Shown here piece by piece: positions 13,222 through 22,241 of a DNA stretch of 24,211 nucleotides. The DNA lies in contig JBFXGF010000001.1 in NCBI GenBank assembly GCA_050178275.1, positions 1 through 24,211 of the forward strand, written 5' to 3'. The stretch's first letter is position 1, and every line of letters starts with the position of its first letter. This DNA is from Thermoplasmata archaeon (lineage in GTDB: Archaea; Thermoplasmatota; Thermoplasmata; UBA10834). The translations under genes and the position numbers were made by a program. The notes below the pieces were generated by a model. It did not search any database and was not told where the DNA came from. It worked only from the letters and a program-made list of their open reading frames with translations.

Positions 13222-15959
13222 CATGGCGGCCAAACCCCCCTCTCCCGGTTCAATCAGGGTGGTGCTGGCATATCGGCCTAGAACTCTGGTCGCCCACCGG
13301 TGGTGTAATCCTTCCTGACCCGAAGTCCCCGCATGGCCGCTGTCGAATCAGTCTTTCCCTTTCCGCCAGCGGTAGACTCCGAGGACGGTTCCTGCGGCCA
13401 CGATTGTCCCCGCCACCAGGATCAGGACCCAAAGCGCGATGCCCGAGGACTCACGATAGTTGAAATCGACCGTGGTCGATGCTTCGTTTCCAGCAGCATC
13501 GGTCGCCCGGACCTCGAAGGTGTGGGCGCCATCCGTCAGGCCTGTGCCCTCCCATTGCTGCGCGGATCCCACATCCGTCCACGCGCCAGAATCGAGTCTC
13601 ACTTCGAATCTGGCGATTCCTGAGACGGTGTCTGAGGCGGCCCATTCGAAAATGACATCTTCGTCGACGGAAGACCCGTTCGGAGGGGAGTTGATTGAGA
13701 GGCTCGGGGCAGTCACATCTATCTTGACCGTTGCCGACCTGATTGGCTCGACGTTGCCCGCCAGGTCCGTCGATCGAAATGACAGGATGTTGGCGCCCTC
13801 GTTCGAAAGGCGGAAATCAGACTTGTATGTCGTCCAGGTGCTGTTGTCGAGACTATACTCGGTCCTCGATACTCTGGAATTGTCGGAGGCAGAGAGTGAC
13901 ACATCGACGCCCGAGACATACCAGTAGTCCTGCCCGACGGTGCCATTGAGCTCGGCCCTCGTCGTTGGAGGGATGGAATCAGACATCCGGAAGACCGCGT
14001 CGGAACAGTCCTCTCCGGTGTTGAACCCATCAGAGGCCATCACCCTGATTCTGCACTTCTCCGTCGGGGCGACCCCGGTCGTGTTCCAGATGTACGAGGA
14101 TGCCGTGAGGTTGTTCGCGACAGGTATCCATGTGCGCCCGTCGTCCGGGGTGTACGAGACGAGATATGACAGGTCGTCCCCGTCGAGGTCATCGGCCGTC
14201 CAGGATATCTCAGGGCTCTGGCCGATGTCGATGTCCTCCGCGCCGTTCGGGGATAGGATGTCCACGGTGGGGACCGATGTCGTGACGATGCGCTCCGCGA
14301 GCACCGCCTCCAGAGGATCGAGTATCTGGACATACCGCGTGTCAGGCAGGTTCGGGGCGTTCACCACGAAGTCGACACTATCGATTTCTTCAAGGAGGTA
14401 CGATTCGTTCTCTCCGTCATCGTGTGTCAACCGAGTGAAGGATACGTTGAAGTATGTGTTGCCGAGGATGTTCCTCGACGAATCCAGCATCCTCACCAAA
14501 TAGCTGCCGACCGGTCCCTGCTGAGGGATGATCTGCTCTTCAGGCACACCCAGGGGAGTAGTGAACCAAGGGCGGGTGATGATGGCCGCCCCGCTCCTCA
14601 GTATTGAGCCGTCGATGACCACGATGGGGCCGAGGGTCGGAGGAGCGTAGACCAACTGGCTGAACAGGTTCCATTCCCAAGTCCCGTTAGGACCGCTGGA
14701 GAGTATCGTGCTCAGGTCGATGTACGACCGCTCGTGGTCCTGGTACCTCTCGTTGTCAATCCAACGAGGAGTCACTGGGACACCCGACGGTAGCCGTCCC
14801 GGGTTGCTCATCCATGTGTTGGCGCTCACACCGTACGCTCTCTCGGAAACGGACCACTTCGTCGCATCGTACACGCTAATGCCAATGTCGTGTGGGTGCC
14901 ACAGGTAGTATGTATGGCCAAGTTCGTGAGCTAGGAGTGCCTCTCTCACGTCTATCCCATTCGCTGTTATGAATAGGGGAACGGGGTCTCGAGGCTCATC
15001 CAAGCAGCCGACCGCTGACCCATATGTCTCGCGTCCCCACGTGTCTCTGATCTTCTCAAATACAGCGACGACGCGATCATAGCCCAAGACCCTCGCCTCA
15101 GCTGACAGCCTCTTTGTGATGATGGCGCAGTCGGTCCACAACCTTGAATCGTAGCGTTCGTCTCTTGGAGGCGCCTCGACAATCTCCACGCCATCGTCAG
15201 CCAACGGGAAAGTGTCCAGGACTTCCCGTAGCTCCTCGTCGAGTGAGAACTCTGGGGGTTCACGGTCCCACAACGCACTAGAGGAACAGTAGATCGGGAC
15301 CACAAGGATGCGCAGGTCGTGCGAAACCCACGCGTCGATGGGCGAATCCGTGGTCATCTGATTGTTCGTCTCGTCAGTCTCGACCACCGAGTTATCGGGG
15401 TCGACCCAGGCAATCACGCTGGAGTCAAGGCCTGGCTCTGTCCACATGAATGTCGCGGGCTCCGAAGTCCAAGGCAGGGGGTGGGATGTGCAGTTTCCAC
15501 CAGGCACATACACCGTGTTGACGCCCGGGGCCAGGGGGATCCCGCGCCTATCCGGCCCGGTCTCGACATACGATGAGGATCCGTGGTTATAGGTCACGCT
15601 GATGTTCGCGTATACCTCCTCGTCGAACGCGTTGATGACCGTCACGCAGAGTGCCGCGGACTTGTTCACCACCACGCCCCTCGGTTCCGGGACGACCTGG
15701 ACGACGACCACGGAGGTGACGTAGAGATCCTCGGTGGAGGCGGCGTTTACGGGTGATAGCGCGGTGGGGATTAGAAGGGCAATCACAATCGCAGGGACGA
15801 CGAACCTCGAACCGAGCCTCATGCATATCCTGCCCATGATTGGCCTGTAGCCCTATAACCCATACGGGGAGGGGGCGAGTGGGTATGCGGCGGTCGAATC
15901 CGTGCTCCAAGTGGCCTTCGACTCAAAGCGAGGGACACCCAGCTAGCTACGCATGAGAG
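13222..15959. mobile_element. Putative decayed tRNA-integrated genomic islet with a single cargo gene and no integrase
   Basis: Bounded by the tRNA-Gly 3' end and its degenerate copy. Spot counts of 60-nt lines give about 57-62% GC versus about 68% in a flanking gene line, with more A/T-ending codons. Confidence 0.45.
13348..15837 (-). CDS. Secreted, C-terminally membrane-anchored multidomain protein: CARDB-like domain, metzincin-like Zn metallopeptidase, and three or more Ig/FN3-like repeats
   Basis: Signal peptide (RFVVPAIVIALLIPTALSPVNA), CARDB motif VDPDNSVVETDETNN, HELGHTYYLWH followed by WMS, Ig-type repeats (IRVMASDG, FRSTDLAGN, VRATDAAGN), TM helix plus RWRKGKD tail. The start may be ATG 15822 given the TATA-like GGTTATAG at 15860-15853. 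Confidence 0.85.
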   Translation of the reverse strand: MGRICMRLGSRFVVPAIVIALLIPTALSPVNAASTEDLYVTSVVVVQVVPEPRGVVVNKSAALCVTVINAFDEEVYANISVTYNHGSSSYVETGPDRRGIPLAPGVNTVYVPGGNCTSHPLPWTSEPATFMWTEPGLDSSVIAWVDPDNSVVETDETNNQMTTDSPIDAWVSHDLRILVVPIYCSSSALWDREPPEFSLDEELREVLDTFPLADDGVEIVEAPPRDERYDSRLWTDCAIITKRLSAEARVLGYDRVVAVFEKIRDTWGRETYGSAVGCLDEPRDPVPLFITANGIDVREALLAHELGHTYYLWHPHDIGISVYDATKWSVSERAYGVSANTWMSNPGRLPSGVPVTPRWIDNERYQDHERSYIDLSTILSSGPNGTWEWNLFSQLVYAPPTLGPIVVIDGSILRSGAAIITRPWFTTPLGVPEEQIIPQQGPVGSYLVRMLDSSRNILGNTYFNVSFTRLTHDDGENESYLLEEIDSVDFVVNAPNLPDTRYVQILDPLEAVLAERIVTTSVPTVDILSPNGAEDIDIGQSPEISWTADDLDGDDLSYLVSYTPDDGRTWIPVANNLTASSYIWNTTGVAPTEKCRIRVMASDGFNTGEDCSDAVFRMSDSIPPTTRAELNGTVGQDYWYVSGVDVSLSASDNSRVSRTEYSLDNSTWTTYKSDFRLSNEGANILSFRSTDLAGNVEPIRSATVKIDVTAPSLSINSPPNGSSVDEDVIFEWAASDTVSGIARFEVRLDSGAWTDVGSAQQWEGTGLTDGAHTFEVRATDAAGNEASTTVDFNYRESSGIALWVLILVAGTIVAAGTVLGVYRWRKGKD

Positions 15960-16031
15960 TGCGGCTGCCGGGATTCGAACCCGGGCTTGAAGCTTGGGAA
16001 GCTTCAGTCCTAACCACTAGACTACAGCCGC
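15960..16031 (-). tRNA. tRNA-Gly (anticodon CCC), intronless, CCA not encoded
   Basis: Folds as GCGGCTG TA GTCT AGTGGTTA GGAC T GAAGC TTCCCAA GCTTC AAGC CCGGG TTCGAAT CCCGG CAGCCGC A. Confidence 0.97.
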
Positions 16032-16038
16032 TCTGAGC

Positions 16039-16293
16039 TCACTTGACCGTTTCGAGCTGGCTGATTATGTTCCAGATGAGCGTCCGCCCGTGCAGCGGTA
16101 TGTTCGGGTCGTTGGCCAGCTCGTCGAGTATCATGATCGCACTGGCGCTCCTGATGTCGAGCGCCTCCTGCTTCTGGGAGAGGCGCTCCTTGGCCTGGGT
16201 CGCGCCGCGCCTGATGTTCCTCGGAACGGAGTTGTCGTCCGCCAGCTGGTCCAGAACCTCCATTATCTGCCTTAGCCTTGTTTCCATGTCCAT
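16039..16293 (-). CDS. UPF0147 family protein
   Basis: DNSVPRNIRR and LDELANDPNIPLHGRTLIWNIISQLE. Start placed at ATG 16293, 7 nt after the GAGGTG SD (the ORF track start 16314 is probably too long). Confidence 0.93.
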   Translation of the reverse strand: MDMETRLRQIMEVLDQLADDNSVPRNIRRGATQAKERLSQKQEALDIRSASAIMILDELANDPNIPLHGRTLIWNIISQLETVK

Positions 16294-16341
16294 CAGAGAC
16301 CACCTCGCCGACACATCGTTCGAATCATGACCGGGAGAGGC

Positions 16342-16683
16342 TCACTCCTTGGTCTCCTCTTCCGGCTCCCTGATCTTCCCGCGCTCCTTGAATGTCGTCA
16401 CGACCATGAAGGTCTTCGTCTCCTTCACGCCCTCGATGCTCGCGACGTCGTCGACTATGAACTTCTTCAGGGACGCGTAGTTCGGGAACCTGGTCTTGGC
16501 GATGATGTCCGTGTCGCCGGTGACGAGGAACACATCCTCCACGTAATCGAACCCCGCGATCTTCTGCGCCACCACGTCCGAGCCTTTCGTGTCTATCTTG
16601 AAGCTCACCAACGCGGCGACCTGGTCCTCGCCGTAGTACGATGATATGATCTCCTCGTACTCCTTCTTGTCCTTCTCTTCCAT
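16342..16683 (-). CDS. Lrp/AsnC ligand-binding (RAM) domain protein without HTH (demi-FFRP)
   Basis: VFLVTGDTDII motif, IEGVKETKTFMV, ACT-like beta-alpha-beta pattern. No N-terminal HTH in 113 aa. Confidence 0.88.
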   Translation of the reverse strand: MEEKDKKEYEEIISSYYGEDQVAALVSFKIDTKGSDVVAQKIAGFDYVEDVFLVTGDTDIIAKTRFPNYASLKKFIVDDVASIEGVKETKTFMVVTTFKERGKIREPEEETKE

Positions 16684-16795
16684 TCAAGCGCCCCCTATCG
16701 GTCCACCTCGGCCTGTGGTGCCCGCGCCCGGCGCTCCGGGGTCGAACTCGGCTCTGGCGAACCGGCTACTCCCTACAGTGCCCTTGCGTAGAATG

Positions 16796-16966
16796 TCACA
16801 GGCGCGCGCCCTCGAACTCCTCTTGGAGGTCTATGATGACCTGCTCCAATATCTCTTCCAAGGAGGCGCTCCTGTACTCTCTCATGCCGCCCAGGTCGCT
16901 CTGCACTCTGGCCACGTACGCGGCGTTGCTCTTCAGAAACTCAACGTTGCACAAGGGCTCTTCCAT
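16796..16966 (-). CDS. Small conserved-looking protein (56 aa), possible HicB/UPF0150-like fold; not in the ORF track
   Basis: Manual translation MEEPLCNVEFLKSNAAYVARVQSDLGGMREYRSASLEEILEQVIIDLQEEFEGARL*. SD GGGGTGA about 7 nt upstream of the ATG; BRE/TATA at 17057-17040. Confidence 0.75.
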   Translation of the reverse strand: MEEPLCNVEFLKSNAAYVARVQSDLGGMREYRSASLEEILEQVIIDLQEEFEGARL

Positions 16967-17310: not shown

Positions 17311-20300
17311 ATGAGGAGGTACTACCGAGAACCCGCCGGGGAGACCCCGCCTCGGATCGAGGCGGAGGTCTTGGCGCTCTGGGGAGAGGAGGGCATCCTC
17401 TCCAAGGTCAAGGAGCGTATGCGGGGCGGGGCCCCCCTCGTCTTCTGCGAGGGCCCCCCGACGGCGAACCGCCCGCCACACATGGGCGACGCCCTCACGC
17501 GCGCGGTCAAGGACGCGTTCCTCAGGTATCATATCATGAACGGCCGGATGATCGTCCCCTACATCGCCGGCTGGGACTGCCACGGGCTGCCGGTCGAGCT
17601 CGAGGCCGAGAGGAGCCTCGGGATCGACAGCAAGGCTGAGATAGAGTCCTACGGCGTGGACAGGTTCAACGCGTTGTGCCGCGAGCGGGTCGTGCGCTAC
17701 AAGGCCGATTGGGAGGAGATGAGCCGTCGTGTGGGCTACGGGATCGACTACGAGGACGCCTACCTGACGATGTCGAACGAGTACGTCGAGAGCGTCTGGT
17801 GGTCCCTGAAGCAGTTGCACTCGAAGGGGTTGCTGTCAAGGTCATCACAAGTCGTGCCTTACTGCCCGAGGTGCGGCACATCCCTCAGCACGCACGAGGT
17901 CGCCCTAGGTTTCAAGGAGTCCGAGGTCAGATGGACCCTGGTCAGGTTCAGGATCCCCTCCATCGACGCGTCCGCCCTCGTATACACGGAGTCCCCGTGG
18001 ACGTTGGCCGCGAACGCGCTGTTGGCTGTCGACCCGTCGAAGCGGTACTCGGTGTTCGAGTCGTCGGGCGAGAAGTTCCTGGTGGCCGATGAGAAGGCCG
18101 AGCTCTTGGGTCCGGCCAGGAAACCCCTGAGGACGATGCCTGGTTCGGAGCTCGTGGGCCTGTCCTACGAGCCGCCGCTCAAGTATCACGAATTCAACGG
18201 TCACGCCTTCAGGATCGTCTCGTCCACGGAGGTCACCAAGGAGGAAGGCACGGGTATCATGCACGTGTCCCCGCCGTACGCGTCCGCGGACCACGGCATA
18301 GGTGTGGTCGAGGGCGTCGGCCTGTTCGACCCGGTGGATGACACTGGCAGGTTCACGGACGCCGTTCCGGACCTCGCGGGCAAGTTCGTGCACGACGCCT
18401 CGTCGGACGTGGTGCGGATGCTGGAGGCGAACGGCCTGCTCTTCAAGTGGGGCCTGACGAAGCGCTCGAGCCCATTCTGCTGGCGGTGCCGCACGCCCCT
18501 GTTGTACAGGCTCACGGACGCGTGGTCCGTGCACGTGTCGGCCGCGAAGGCGCGCATGTCCCAGCTCAACTCAGGCGTCAGGTGGGTCCCGGAGGACTAC
18601 AGGGACGGCAGATTCGGCGACTTCCTCGAGGACGCGAAGGACTGGTCGGTCAGCAGGAGCAGGTACTGGGGAACGCCGCTGCCAGTCTGGCGGTGCGGTT
18701 CCGGGCACGAGGTCTGCGTCGGCAGTCTCGAGGAGATGTCGAGGATGTCTACCGCCCCCCTCCCGGCGTCGCTCGACCTCCACAGGCCACATATCGACGC
18801 CGTCAGGCTGCGCTGCCCTGAGTGCGGGGGCGAAATGACCAGGGAGCCCTACGTCCTGGATTGCTGGTACGACTCCGGTTGCGCCCCGTTCGCCCAATAT
18901 CACTATCCTTTCGAGAACATGGCGGAGTTCGAGACCCACAGGTCCGTGGACTTCATCACGGAGTCGGCGGACCAGACCAGGGGCTGGTTCTACACGCAGC
19001 ACGTGGTCAGCACCCTCCTGTTCGACGCCCCCGCGTTCAAGTCCGTGCTCGTGCTAGGGGACCTCCTTGACGAGAAGGGCCAGGTCATTAGGTCTTCGGC
19101 CGGGAACACGGTCCCGCCGGGCGAGGTGTTCTCGTCGGTGGGCGCTGACGCGGCGAGGTTGTACTTGCTGGGCTCCGAGGTGTGGCAGCCCGTCAGGTTC
19201 TCCATGGACGACGTGAGGAAGGCCATGTTCGGCACGTTCACCACCGTCCTGAACCTTTACGCCTTCTACTCGTCGAACGCGAACGCATACGGCTACACCG
19301 GCCAGAAGGCCAAAGGGCGGACCCACGACCTCGACCGGTGGATCATATCGAGGCTCAACTCCACGGTGAGGGATGTCAGGGCGGGTTTCGACGCGCTCGA
19401 GGTCCAGTCCGCCGTGCACGCGGTCATCCGGTTCATCGACGACCTCAGCGGCTGGTACGTGCGCAGGTCCAGGAGGCGGTTCTGGGTCGAGAGCGACCCG
19501 GAGGACAGGTTCTCCGCCCACGCGACGCTCAACGAGTGCCTCACGACCCTGTCGCTGCTGATGGCCCCGGCCGCGCCGTTCTTCTCGGACTGGTTATACA
19601 GGTGCCTCAAGGGTCCGAAAGAGTCCGTGCACCTCGAGGATTTCCCAGCCGCCGACGAGTCCCAGATAGACCCGTCCCTCGAGTCGCAGATGGCGCTGGT
19701 CAGGCAGGCCGTCGAGGCCGGGAGGACCGCGAGGCAGGGAGCCAACATCAAGCTCAGGCAGCCGCTCGACAAGGCGGTCATCGCGGCCGGCAGGGACGGC
19801 GTCTGGGTCCTCCGGAGGTATGAGAAGATGCTCTCCGAGGAGCTCAATGTCAAGCAGGTCGAGTGCATCGAGTCGAGGGAGAGCATGATGGAGTTCACCG
19901 TCTCCCCGAACCTCAGGACGATCGGGCCGAAGTACAAGGAGACCGCGGCGGAGGTGTCGCGCATGCTGGGTCAGGTAGACGGGAACGAGCTCGTGAGACA
20001 CCTCAGGTCGGTCGGACGGGTGAGGCTCGGCGGGTTCGACCTGTACGAGGAGGACGTGGTCGTGTCCGAGCGGCAGAAGGGCGGATATGCCCACGCGAGC
20101 GCCGGCGATGTCCATGTTTACATGTCGCTCGCGGTCGATAAGAAGCTCAGGATCGAGGGTCTCGCGAGAGAGGTCATCAGACGCATCCAGCATATGCGCA
20201 AGGAGCAGGGGCTGCAGTTCGAGGACGAGATAGAGGTCGGTTACGACGCGCACCCGGACATCGAGGCGGCCATCGCGTCGTACAGGCCTCACATAGCCAA

Positions 20301-20409
20301 CGAGACGCATGCCCGCTCGGTGGAGAAGGCGCCCAGCGAGGAGGGCGCCAAGAGCTGGACCGTGGACAAGATGCCGCTCGAGCTGACGGTCAGGAAGGCC
20401 GGACGCTGA
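17311..20409 (+). CDS. ileS: Isoleucyl-tRNA synthetase-like protein (type 2/archaeal IleRS architecture) with degenerate HIGH and KMSKS motifs; possibly a catalytically inactive paralogue
   Basis: EGPPTAN, GWDCHGLPVE, YCPRCGTSLS, DWSVSRSRYWGTPLPVW, VLDCWYDSG, DQTRGWFY, LSGWYVRRSRRRFW, KLRQPL, EGLAREVIRRIQHMRK. HIGH reads HMGD (17479-17490) and KMSKS reads VIRSS (19084-19098). ATG 17311 follows GGAGGA. The family call is secure; synthetase activity is doubtful. Confidence 0.9.
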   Translation: MRRYYREPAGETPPRIEAEVLALWGEEGILSKVKERMRGGAPLVFCEGPPTANRPPHMGDALTRAVKDAFLRYHIMNGRMIVPYIAGWDCHGLPVELEAERSLGIDSKAEIESYGVDRFNALCRERVVRYKADWEEMSRRVGYGIDYEDAYLTMSNEYVESVWWSLKQLHSKGLLSRSSQVVPYCPRCGTSLSTHEVALGFKESEVRWTLVRFRIPSIDASALVYTESPWTLAANALLAVDPSKRYSVFESSGEKFLVADEKAELLGPARKPLRTMPGSELVGLSYEPPLKYHEFNGHAFRIVSSTEVTKEEGTGIMHVSPPYASADHGIGVVEGVGLFDPVDDTGRFTDAVPDLAGKFVHDASSDVVRMLEANGLLFKWGLTKRSSPFCWRCRTPLLYRLTDAWSVHVSAAKARMSQLNSGVRWVPEDYRDGRFGDFLEDAKDWSVSRSRYWGTPLPVWRCGSGHEVCVGSLEEMSRMSTAPLPASLDLHRPHIDAVRLRCPECGGEMTREPYVLDCWYDSGCAPFAQYHYPFENMAEFETHRSVDFITESADQTRGWFYTQHVVSTLLFDAPAFKSVLVLGDLLDEKGQVIRSSAGNTVPPGEVFSSVGADAARLYLLGSEVWQPVRFSMDDVRKAMFGTFTTVLNLYAFYSSNANAYGYTGQKAKGRTHDLDRWIISRLNSTVRDVRAGFDALEVQSAVHAVIRFIDDLSGWYVRRSRRRFWVESDPEDRFSAHATLNECLTTLSLLMAPAAPFFSDWLYRCLKGPKESVHLEDFPAADESQIDPSLESQMALVRQAVEAGRTARQGANIKLRQPLDKAVIAAGRDGVWVLRRYEKMLSEELNVKQVECIESRESMMEFTVSPNLRTIGPKYKETAAEVSRMLGQVDGNELVRHLRSVGRVRLGGFDLYEEDVVVSERQKGGYAHASAGDVHVYMSLAVDKKLRIEGLAREVIRRIQHMRKEQGLQFEDEIEVGYDAHPDIEAAIASYRPHIANETHARSVEKAPSEEGAKSWTVDKMPLELTVRKAGR

Positions 20410-20881
20410 CCTTGCGCCTCTTCGACGGCAGGACCTTCTCCATCACATACGCGTGCCTGCCGGCGCCGTAGTAGTCCCTCATGACCACCCTCAGGGTGTA
20501 GCCCTGCTTGAGGTACAGCGCTATAGCGGGCTCGTTGCTGACATCCACCTCGAGCCCGAAGGTCCTCGCGCCCATGCCCTCCAAGGACTTCTCAGCCTCG
20601 CGCAGCATCGACGTGCCCACGCCCTCTCTCCTCCGGCCCTCGAGGACCGCCATCGACGCTATCCTTCCTTCGGCTCTGCTCTTCGAGCAGAGGCACAGGA
20701 CCGCCCCTATCACGCGCCCACCGTCGTCGGCGACCAGGGCGAACGCGTCGTCCCTCAGCAGGAAGGCCTTCATGGTGTCCTCTGAGAACTTCTCGGCCCC
20801 GAAGCATTCCTGCTCGAGCCGCATCAGGCCCTCGAGGTCATCCATGGCGCCTTCCCTGACATCCACGGCACGTGGTACCAT
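20390..20881 (-). CDS. GNAT family N-acetyltransferase (RimI-like)
   Basis: LEQECF, RIASMAVLEGRRREGVG (motif A), LEVDVSNEPAIALYLKQGY. The ORF track extension to 21349 is antisense to asnS and was trimmed. Start is ATG 20881 or GTG 20866. Confidence 0.9.
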   Translation of the reverse strand: MVPRAVDVREGAMDDLEGLMRLEQECFGAEKFSEDTMKAFLLRDDAFALVADDGGRVIGAVLCLCSKSRAEGRIASMAVLEGRRREGVGTSMLREAEKSLEGMGARTFGLEVDVSNEPAIALYLKQGYTLRVVMRDYYGAGRHAYVMEKVLPSKRRKVSVRPS

Positions 20882-20920
20882 CCAGCCACGATAAGTCCAT
20901 TGCGGCCCGCGTCCGAAGGG

Positions 20921-20928
20921 CTTATATT
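20921..20928 (+). promoter_or_regulatory. TATA box CTTATATT of a leaderless asnS transcript
   Basis: Ends about 24 nt before ATG 20952. Confidence 0.55.
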
Positions 20929-20951
20929 CGGATTGGGGCTTCAGCATCTGG

Positions 20952-22241
20952 ATGGTCGTGATAAAGGACGCCCTCTCGAAGGACATGGTCGGAAAGCCCG
21001 TCCAGTTGAGGGGCTGGATATACCGGACCCGGAGCAGCGGGGGCATCGTGTTCGCCGTGCTCAGGGACTCGACTGGCATAGTCCAGGTCACTGTGAAGAA
21101 GGGCTCGGTGCCCGAACCGGACTTCATCGCCGCCACGAACTCAGGCATCGAGTCATCCGTCATCATAGATGGCACGGTCGCGGAGGACGCCCGCGCCCCC
21201 GGGGGGTACGAGGTGCGCGCGACCAAGTTCACGGTCGTCGGCCCCACGGAACCGTTCCCCATCACGGAGTACCAGAGCACCGAGCTCCTGCTCGACCTGC
21301 GGCACCTGTGGATACGGTCCAGGGAGCAGACCGCGGCGATGCGGATCAAGGACGCCCTGCTGCGGGGGGCGAGGCAGTGGTTCCACGAGAACGACTACGT
21401 CGAGGTGACCCCACCCATCATCACGGGCGTCGCCGCCGAGGACAGCACCCAGCTCTTCCAGATCAAGTACTTCGACAGGATCGCATACCTGTCCCAGAGC
21501 GCCCAGTTCTACCTCGAGTCGCTCATCTACTCCTGCGACAAGGTGTTCTCCCTCACGCCCTCGTTCAGGGCCGAGAAGTCGAGGACGCCCAGGCACCTGG
21601 CCGAGTTCTGGCACCTCGAGATGGAGGCCGCCTGGGTCGACAACCTCGGTAACATGAAGGTCCAGGAGGAGCTCGTGACCGCGATGCTGCACAAGGCCGC
21701 GGCCGACTGTCGGGCCGAGCTCGAGCTGTTCAAGCGGGACCCGGAGACGCTGAGGAGCATCGCGCCGCCGTTCGACAGGGTCCAATACGGCGAGGCCATC
21801 GACCGGCTCCAGGCGAAGGGGTTGGATGTCAGCTGGGGAGCCGACTTCGGAGCAGTCGAGGAGCGCGAGCTGACCAAGGACAGCGGGATGCCGATGTTCG
21901 TGGTCAACTACCCGAAGGAGCTCAAGCCGTTCTACATGAAGGAGAACCCGGACGACCCCAGGACGTACAAGAACACCGACCTCCTGGCGCCAGAGGGCTT
22001 CGGCGAGATTATCGGCGGGAGCGAGAGGGAGACGGACAACGCCCTCATAATCGAGCGGATCAAGGAGAAGGGCGAGGACCTGGACAAGTACTCGTGGTAT
22101 CTCGACCTGAGGAGGTACGGCTCGGTGCCTCACTCCGGGTTCGGCCTGGGCGTCGAGAGGTTCGTGACATGGGTCTGCAAGATGGACCACATAAGGGACG
22201 CGATACCGTACCCGAGGACCGTGTCCCGCGTGTTCCCCTAG
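20952..22241 (+). CDS. asnS: Asparagine--tRNA ligase (class IIb)
   Basis: OB-fold LRGWIYRTRSSGGIVFAVLRDSTG, LRHLWIRS, LSQSAQFYLE, motif 2 FRAEKSRTPRHLAEFW, EIIGGSERE, motif 3 HSGFGLGVER. Confidence 0.95.
   Translation: MVVIKDALSKDMVGKPVQLRGWIYRTRSSGGIVFAVLRDSTGIVQVTVKKGSVPEPDFIAATNSGIESSVIIDGTVAEDARAPGGYEVRATKFTVVGPTEPFPITEYQSTELLLDLRHLWIRSREQTAAMRIKDALLRGARQWFHENDYVEVTPPIITGVAAEDSTQLFQIKYFDRIAYLSQSAQFYLESLIYSCDKVFSLTPSFRAEKSRTPRHLAEFWHLEMEAAWVDNLGNMKVQEELVTAMLHKAAADCRAELELFKRDPETLRSIAPPFDRVQYGEAIDRLQAKGLDVSWGADFGAVEERELTKDSGMPMFVVNYPKELKPFYMKENPDDPRTYKNTDLLAPEGFGEIIGGSERETDNALIIERIKEKGEDLDKYSWYLDLRRYGSVPHSGFGLGVERFVTWVCKMDHIRDAIPYPRTVSRVFP

Follow-up and report, generated by a model that had tools for sequence, protein, structure and literature searches.

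The window analysed here is a stretch of 24,211 nucleotides from a Thermoplasmata archaeon of the lineage UBA10834 (GenBank assembly GCA_050178275.1, contig JBFXGF010000001.1, positions 1 to 24,211 of the forward strand), and the gene of interest lies on its plus strand at 17311-20409. It encodes a protein of 1032 amino acids (P0001) with the full architecture of an isoleucyl-tRNA synthetase (IleRS) of the IleRS2 type, which probably does not charge tRNA. In what follows, the short (~1030 aa) IleRS2-type copy is referred to as type A, and the long archaeal IleRS as type B. As described in the initial annotation, which was made from the DNA letters alone, the open reading frame (ORF) runs through 1032 codons without interruption. 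ATG 17311 is preferred as the start to TTG 17293, because the resulting N-terminus, MRRYYREP, agrees with the family consensus MxKYYREP. The features of the gene are as follows.

17311..20409, plus strand: full-length IleRS2-type paralogue, type A, 1032 aa, P0001 (ORF, family profiles and AlphaFold2 model)
17479..17490, plus strand: remnant of the HIGH motif, H57-M-G-D60, with G54 of the preceding 'ANG' replaced by R (alignment to 8C8V and relatives)
17569..17592, plus strand: GWDCHGLP, residues 87-94, including the amino-group-binding Asp89 of the isoleucine pocket (invariant in 109 sequences)
17983..18003, plus strand: Thr-rich editing motif in the degenerate form YTESPWT, canonically WTTTPWT (alignment and position comparison)
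18247..18291, plus strand: second editing motif GTGIMHVSPPYASAD, canonically GSGxVHxAPxxGxDD (alignment and position comparison)
18970..18987, plus strand: DQTRGW, residues 554-559, with D554, Q555 and W559 of the ribose and isoleucine pockets (invariant or nearly so)
19084..19098, plus strand: remnant of the KMSKS loop, V592-I-R-S-S596 (alignment to 8C8V and relatives)
19252..19473, plus strand: ARD1 anticodon residues N648, F652, S713 and R721, equivalent to N647, F651, S713 and R721 of PmIleRS2 (HMMER alignment to 8C8V)
20188..20214, plus strand: ARD3 pocket for the wobble base (G34), Q960, R963, K964 and L968, equivalent to Q961, R964, K965 and L969 of PmIleRS2 (HMMER alignment to 8C8V)

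Three Pfam domains are recognised in type A, namely tRNA-synt_1, Anticodon_1 and DUF5915 (the latter covering ARD2/3), and the protein exceeds the cut-off of the NCBIfam ileS equivalog TIGR00392 (740.7 bits vs 621.4). Among solved structures, its best sequence matches are the IleRS2 of Priestia megaterium (8C8V; phmmer E = 2e-232, Foldseek identity 37%) and the IleRS of Thermus thermophilus (1ILE). The AlphaFold2 model (pLDDT 90.1, pTM 0.83), which superposes on 8C8V with a TM-score of 0.93, predicts a confident and complete IleRS2 fold: Rossmann/HUP domain, CP1 editing domain, zinc knuckles and ARD1-3 are all present. The assignment to the IleRS2 clade is also borne out by the placement of the protein with IleRS2-type sequences in the tree (see below), and by a C-terminus that carries ARD3 and lacks a zinc-binding tail.

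The two signatures of the adenylation site are, by contrast with IleRS2, absent. The alignment bears out the reading of the initial annotation at both sites: HIGH is replaced by HMGD after ANR, a form that is neither HxGH, HxG[TNS] nor the known variant GxHH, and the KMSKS loop reads VIRSS, with no second lysine. Two further substitutions that had been counted as losses turn out to be uninformative, since position 584 (LGH reading LGD) varies in canonical IleRS too (L/H/I/F), and the motif EGxDQ, reading ESADQ, keeps E551, D554 and Q555, the aligned canonical enzymes having A or G at the changed position.

Neither alteration is peculiar to the window. In 110 type A sequences, taken as representatives of clusters at 90% identity, K[MIL]SK is never found and the site is occupied by 86 distinct pentamers; the second lysine, present in 99% of canonical sequences, is kept in 13% of the family (14/110). 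HxGH survives in 65 of the 110, at least 15 separate losses having affected the first His, the Gly and the last His, each of them repeatedly. At position 60, His occurs in 91% of canonical sequences vs 70% of the family, whereas G54 falls from 91% to 1%. In the genus of the window the last His is an Asp, and HMGD recurs in the independently assembled genomes G001, G002, G003, G008, G009 and G011, so that an assembly error, which the initial annotation had wished to see excluded, does not explain it. Across representatives of the 149 next-closest IleRS clusters at 50% identity, the second lysine is nearly universal, HIGH reads HxGH, HxG[TNS] or GxHH, and an Asp at the fourth position occurs in none. 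In the family as a whole, the loss of KMSKS came first and affects every member; the decay of HIGH followed, on repeated occasions.

How selective this loss has been can be judged from the 167 positions at which 152 canonical IleRS2-type sequences reach a conservation of at least 85%; these were examined in the type A family at the same threshold. As many as 140 of them remain at least 85% conserved and 27 are weakened or lost. Eight of the 27 belong to the site binding ATP and the transition state (canonical residues G54, H60, K592, M593, S594, K595, N599 and P603), 11 to the post-transfer editing site (W225, T227, T228, T231, V308, V317, H318, A320, G324, H385 and Y387), three are new fixations specific to the family (P545S, L563Q and Y201F), and five lie elsewhere (81, 144, 174, 433 and 760). 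The proposal that loss is focused on the ATP site in an otherwise preserved protein is thus upheld as regards catalysis and the preserved remainder, and has to be amended in one respect: the editing site is relaxed as well. W225, T227, T228 and T231 each fall below 50% in the family, vs 97-99% in canonical sequences, and in the second editing motif V317, H318, A320 and G324 are weakened family-wide, D327 being kept. Retention is as low as 8% for T227 and 16% for H318 (the window protein itself still has H318), 44% for T231, 47% for T228, and about 70% for H385 and Y387. In the window protein none of the three canonical elements (WTTTPWT; VHxAP..G.DD; HxY) is intact; they read YTESPWT, IMHVSP..ASAD, and R385 with S387.

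What has been kept is equally telling. Little or no variation is seen in the family at the isoleucine pocket (P49/P50, D89, W519, Q555 and W559) or at the ribose contacts E551 and D554, and pocket and anticodon-recognition residues are identical to those of IleRS2. The pocket residues presumably correspond to P46, D85, W518, Q554 and W558 of the T. thermophilus enzyme, an equivalence based on the published numbering and on the register of the motifs. The zinc cysteines C185, C188, C390, C393, C462, C502 and C505 are invariant across 109 relatives, and so is WYVRRSRRRFW. The features listed as retained in the initial annotation (GWDCHGLP, DQTRGW, SRSRYWG, the seven zinc cysteines, WYVRRSRRRFW and the C-terminal domain) are indeed all there. 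On the tRNA side, the residues by which PmIleRS2 recognises the anticodon have been identified by mutagenesis as N647, F651, S713, R721, Q961, R964, K965 and L969 (PMC13752280). The four ARD1 counterparts in type A are invariant or at least 90% conserved in the family; in ARD3, Q960, R963 and K964 never vary, and L968 reaches a conservation of at least 90%.

Type A does not stand alone. The metagenome-assembled genome (MAG) to which the window belongs (G000; 1.36 Mb, 219 contigs, ~70% complete) contains a second IleRS, of type B, split across two contig ends: C125 carries the N-terminal 420 aa with HIGT, GYDMHGLP, WTTTPWT and VHIAPGHGPED, and C152 a C-terminal piece with a long extension. The second, canonical ileS that the initial annotation had proposed to look for is thereby accounted for. 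The type B fragment is 89% identical to its orthologue in G009, alongside 88% for type A, and a binning artefact is therefore unlikely. In a survey of 40 related genomes, 24 of which belong to the same archaeal family, both types were found in all 24; in one of them (G004), where type B seemed to be absent, a targeted search recovered its C-terminus cut by a contig end. Type A proteins of the family are ~1030 aa long and 58-88% identical to the window protein, and type B proteins are 1340-1400 aa long and ~35% identical to it. Type B has intact motifs (HxGT, [AP]MSKS, WTTTPWT and VHIAP..ED, the editing site included) and a C-terminal HhH and DUF835 extension. Since no other IleRS was found in the majority of the remaining families of the class, also in genomes 93-99% complete, type B must be a working enzyme, and housekeeping charging of isoleucine is covered by this separate archaeal IleRS.

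The history of the two copies is one of common descent within the family. In a tree of 143 sequences, drawn without a ValRS root, degenerate type A proteins form a single clade (support 100), whose long stem measures 0.55 substitutions per site and which arises from within canonical IleRS2-type sequences, their nearest neighbours being type A copies of other Thermoplasmata families with normal HIGH and KMSKS; in genomes of two such families (99-100% complete) a canonical type A is the only IleRS. Type B proteins, for their part, branch deeply as an archaeal clade of their own, in agreement with the species groupings. Within the family, pairwise identities of the two types are correlated (r = 0.977 in 36 genome pairs); therefore, both copies have been vertically inherited since the origin of the family, although at depth the non-synonymous evolution of type A is ~1.4-1.7 times faster than that of type B. 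As to provenance, homologues carry the source label Thermoplasmata archaeon or Thermoplasmatota archaeon, the window gene itself occurs at 100% identity in a landfill metagenome, and near-identical DNA is found in landfill and sediment metagenomes.

Type A is under purifying selection throughout. By the Nei-Gojobori method, the ratio of non-synonymous to synonymous substitution rates (dN/dS) is 0.08-0.20 in 28 closer pairs, comparable to that of type B in the same genome pairs, and 0.15 between the window gene and its nearest relative; the values are far from those near 1 that had been named as the mark of a decaying pseudogene. Domain by domain, dN/dS is 0.10-0.17. It rises to 0.28 in the KMSKS loop and drops to 0.011 over residues 48-66, which surround the altered HIGH, the degenerate form being itself constrained.

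Taken as a whole, the evidence makes it probable, at the level of sequence, that type A is a non-aminoacylating IleRS2-type paralogue that binds tRNA-Ile and isoleucine. Activation of isoleucine, charging of tRNA and editing would have been lost at the origin of one Thermoplasmata family, as suggested by the hypervariable loss of KMSKS, the repeated loss of HIGH, the relaxed editing site and the intact co-resident IleRS. Since then, purifying selection would have acted for a function that needs the isoleucine pocket and the surface recognising the anticodon of tRNA-Ile; a dN/dS of ~0.1-0.2, universal retention in the family, and frozen isoleucine and anticodon pockets argue for such a non-catalytic role. 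The protein may hold tRNA-Ile through ARD1 and ARD3, and accommodate isoleucine or the isoleucyl-A76 end in its preserved pocket, without catalysis, which would make it a binding, sensing or escorting factor for tRNA-Ile. The non-aminoacylating role suggested in the initial annotation thus gains support from the co-resident canonical IleRS, the low dN/dS, the recurring substitutions and the concentration of losses at catalytic positions.

Several observations weigh against this interpretation. HxGH is still present in 59% of the family, about half of the members have K or R at the position of the second lysine, and nine of them pair HxGH with a KxxK loop (e.g. KITKD), which could leave these nine with weak activity. 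The ribose-binding D554 and E551 are kept, together with G583, and type A may therefore still bind a nucleotide. The binding of tRNA is, for its part, deduced solely from the conservation of residues. Expression is weakly supported, by two short metatranscriptome contigs at ~99% identity for which a carry-over of DNA is possible. Finally, in one relative (G019:C1:584601-587689, L029) the type A gene appears split near residue 690 into two overlapping frames, the second of which contains an in-frame TGA. Either sequencing introduced a frameshift or this lineage has truly lost the gene; if the split is real, type A is dispensable there.

A more specific, and rather doubtful, form of the binding role is that of a stand-alone archaeal sensor of isoleucine supply, reading the charging of tRNA-Ile through the anticodon and Ile/A76 pockets and signalling to regulation. 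Such a protein would be comparable in function to the HisRS-like domain of GCN2; archaea are not known to have a tRNA-based starvation sensor of this kind.

Alternatively, the remodelled synthetic site may have acquired a new chemistry, for example that of an isoleucyl transferase which, like SbzA, depends on Ile-tRNA-Ile, in this case charged by type B. The selective preservation of the isoleucine pocket and of tRNA-Ile recognition, but not of the residues handling ATP, would fit, as would the fixation in the family of S545, Q563 and F201 (canonically P, L and Y) and the strong constraint on the altered HIGH region within genera (dN/dS 0.011); moreover, an IleRS homologue working as an aminoacyl-tRNA-dependent transferase is documented (PMC9437257; PMC12945691). 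That precedent, however, has HYGH and the KMSKS lysine intact and is encoded in a biosynthetic cluster, while type A looks monocistronic and has housekeeping neighbours (AspRS, GNAT, demi-Lrp and tRNA-Gly). Positions of HIGH and KMSKS that vary between genera are not what one would expect of new catalytic residues, and no acceptor substrate can be proposed; I regard this explanation as unlikely.

It is also improbable that type A is a still active IleRS with a non-canonical site, serving as a slow backup or as a second, inhibitor-resistant enzyme in the manner of the bacterial IleRS2/MupA. A protein that exceeds the TIGR00392 cut-off, with isoleucine pocket, ribose-binding residues and tRNA determinants intact, might well be expected to work, the more so as the IleRS2 lineage tolerates a rearranged HIGH, GxHH (PMC13752280), and as 59% of the family have HxGH and nine members a KxxK loop. 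Yet no member has a KMSKS, and the loop differs even among close relatives (86 pentamers in 110 sequences, dN/dS 0.28); each of the conserved residues of HIGH (both His and the Gly) has been lost repeatedly, the last His being Asp in the genus of the window; and a relaxed editing site is unexpected in a working IleRS. A basic residue in the HIGH loop could compensate, as it does in some ArgRS. A Lys or Arg two positions before the first His is indeed found in 78/110 family members, but also in 50/152 canonical IleRS, and this candidate compensation thus receives no specific support.

A free-standing, full-length deacylase clearing mischarged tRNA-Ile in trans is very unlikely. Although tRNA recognition is intact and His318, Asp327 and Thr226/Thr231 survive in the genus of the window, family-wide the editing site is one of the two most relaxed regions, and its residues rank near the bottom in retention among canonically conserved positions; with an intact editing site of its own, type B would not obviously call for a separate deacylase. 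For the same reason, a division of labour in which type B lacks editing and type A supplies it was discarded. That the gene is a decaying pseudogene or an artefact of assembly or binning, as a fragmented MAG (219 contigs, ~70% complete) and the split copy in G019 might suggest, can be practically dismissed in view of the 1032 open codons, the full-length copies in most family genomes, the dN/dS of 0.08-0.20, the synteny conserved across the family, the recurrence of the motif states in independent assemblies and the co-divergence of type A with type B.

Returning to the non-aminoacylating, tRNA-Ile-binding paralogue as the preferred interpretation, its relation to known systems can be specified. 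From IleRS2 (8C8V, 1ILE) type A differs in the missing KMSKS, in HMGD for HIGH, in the lost 'ANG', in the relaxed Thr, His and Tyr of the editing site, and in that it always coexists with a separate canonical IleRS. The closest functional analogue, as far as can be told from its summary in PMC9437257 (after Weitzel et al. 2020), is LeuRS-I of the Sulfolobaceae, an archaeal, full-length class Ia paralogue found beside a working enzyme, which binds tRNA without aminoacylating it and has a disrupted editing domain. Like LeuRS-I, type A is accompanied by a canonical enzyme of the same specificity and is maintained by selection. The differences are that LeuRS-I, according to the same summary, still makes leucyl-adenylate, whereas the adenylation signatures of type A are gone, and that LeuRS-I derives from a leucine rather than an isoleucine synthetase and belongs to another phylum; the type A family keeps a conventional C-terminal domain.

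Another point of comparison is SbzA, an IleRS-like transferase of Streptomyces involved in the biosynthesis of SB-203207, which uses Ile-tRNA-Ile made by the canonical enzyme (PMC9437257; PMC12945691). SbzA retains 61-HYGH-64 and Lys608, shows weak aminoacylation and is encoded in a natural-product gene cluster (PMC12945691). It resembles type A in being an IleRS homologue whose main role is not the charging of tRNA; type A has lost both HIGH and the KMSKS lysine and has no biosynthetic-cluster context. The mupirocin hyper-resistant IleRS2 with GxHH is likewise a case of a naturally altered HIGH in the IleRS2 lineage, but it keeps both histidines (swapped) and a canonical KMSKS, and is active (PMC13752280), while type A has Asp in place of the last His and no KMSKS at all.

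For a few specificities, catalytically dead paralogues of synthetases are on record, namely LeuRS-I, HisZ and the HisRS-like domain of GCN2. The latter two derive from synthetases, have lost catalysis and act as sensors or regulators through the binding of a ligand or of tRNA. They differ from type A in their class II origin, and in belonging, as domains or subunits, to larger systems whose partners are known; of the two, HisZ appears in PMC9437257. No counterpart among IleRS was found in the literature, where a search returned no description of a non-catalytic IleRS family. A 2026 survey of ~98,000 IleRS sequences distinguishes the clades IleRS-A, IleRS1 and IleRS2, and term searches of it gave no mention of an inactive IleRS paralogue.

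Type A would be an unusually clean case among them: architecture, amino-acid pocket and anticodon residues have stayed frozen, the loss of conservation is almost confined to the two catalytic centres, and a whole archaeal family retains the gene alongside a working enzyme. It may be regarded as a natural separation-of-function variant, informative on the uses of the IleRS scaffold other than charging, and it points to a candidate archaeal factor for the sensing of tRNA or of amino acids. On the practical side, type A genes are named 'isoleucine--tRNA ligase' by automatic annotation and pass the equivalog threshold; therefore, pathway and completeness inferences for these genomes can go astray.

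The reciprocal situation is encountered in other families of the class. In three genomes (G034, G035 and G037) a canonical type A is accompanied by a type B that lacks HIGH and KMSKS and, in G035 and G037, GxDMHGLP and DQTRGW as well. These degenerate type B proteins (L049 in G035, L050 in G037 and L051 in G034; P0270-P0280) keep the anticodon domain, DUF5915 and the HhH/DUF835 tail. The form found in G035 belongs to a conserved family with at least 11 clusters, 54-100% identical, and with fixed motifs of its own, e.g. WFSEPWR and VPAHS. It seems that Thermoplasmata with two IleRS genes regularly keep one of them as a non-catalytic protein. Were type A to act as a sensor of isoleucine supply, the dead type B of sister lineages would mean that Thermoplasmata repeatedly convert a surplus IleRS into a binding protein.

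Around the type A gene, the following features were identified in the window.

15959-16031, minus strand: tRNA-Gly(CCC), ~1.3 kb upstream of type A
16039-16314, minus strand: 91-aa helical protein, upstream gene
16342-16683, minus strand: demi-Lrp, i.e. an Lrp/AsnC ligand-binding domain with no DNA-binding domain (PF01037, E = 7e-15)
16796-16966, minus strand: 56-aa ORF, upstream gene
20390-21349, minus strand: GNAT ORF of 319 aa, convergent with type A (domain at ~20497-20827)
20952-22241, plus strand: AspRS/AsnRS-type class II synthetase, downstream, beyond GNAT

The three small minus-strand genes at 16039-16966 diverge from type A, and their position is conserved across the family; the whole arrangement is kept throughout the family and is absent around canonical type A genes elsewhere. 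ORFs on the plus strand upstream of type A were considered as operon partners and rejected, as they appear to be antisense shadows, the true upstream genes lying on the minus strand and GNAT being convergent. Type A thus appears to be monocistronic, with no co-transcribed partner to hint at its function. As regards its presumed ligand, no tRNA-Ile was found among the 26 tRNAs of the window's MAG. In G018, a closed genome of the family, no extra or unusual tRNA-Ile was seen in the part of the tRNA set that was covered: of the 42 tRNA hits, ARAGORN named 28, which include a single tRNA-Ile(GAU) and two tRNA-CAU.

A few minor observations may be added. The tRNA-Gly(CCC) occupies the same relative position in G018 (L072), and the neighbourhood is therefore old. 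About 400 nt at the start of the AspRS/AsnRS-type gene are shared with the GNAT ORF; the real GNAT is probably ~170 aa long, because in distant relatives the apparent conservation of the N-terminal part of the ORF exceeds that of the domain, as in an antisense shadow. The C-terminal fusion of type B, of which no description was found, consists of an HhH_5 domain, a low-complexity linker and DUF835, adds ~300-400 residues and occurs in many families of the class (L052:642-4661, minus strand; others in L036-L055, and in G000 on contigs C125 and C152). In G004, DUF835 is multiplied, at least 12 separate loci matching the type B tail with E-values of 1e-9 to 1e-28.

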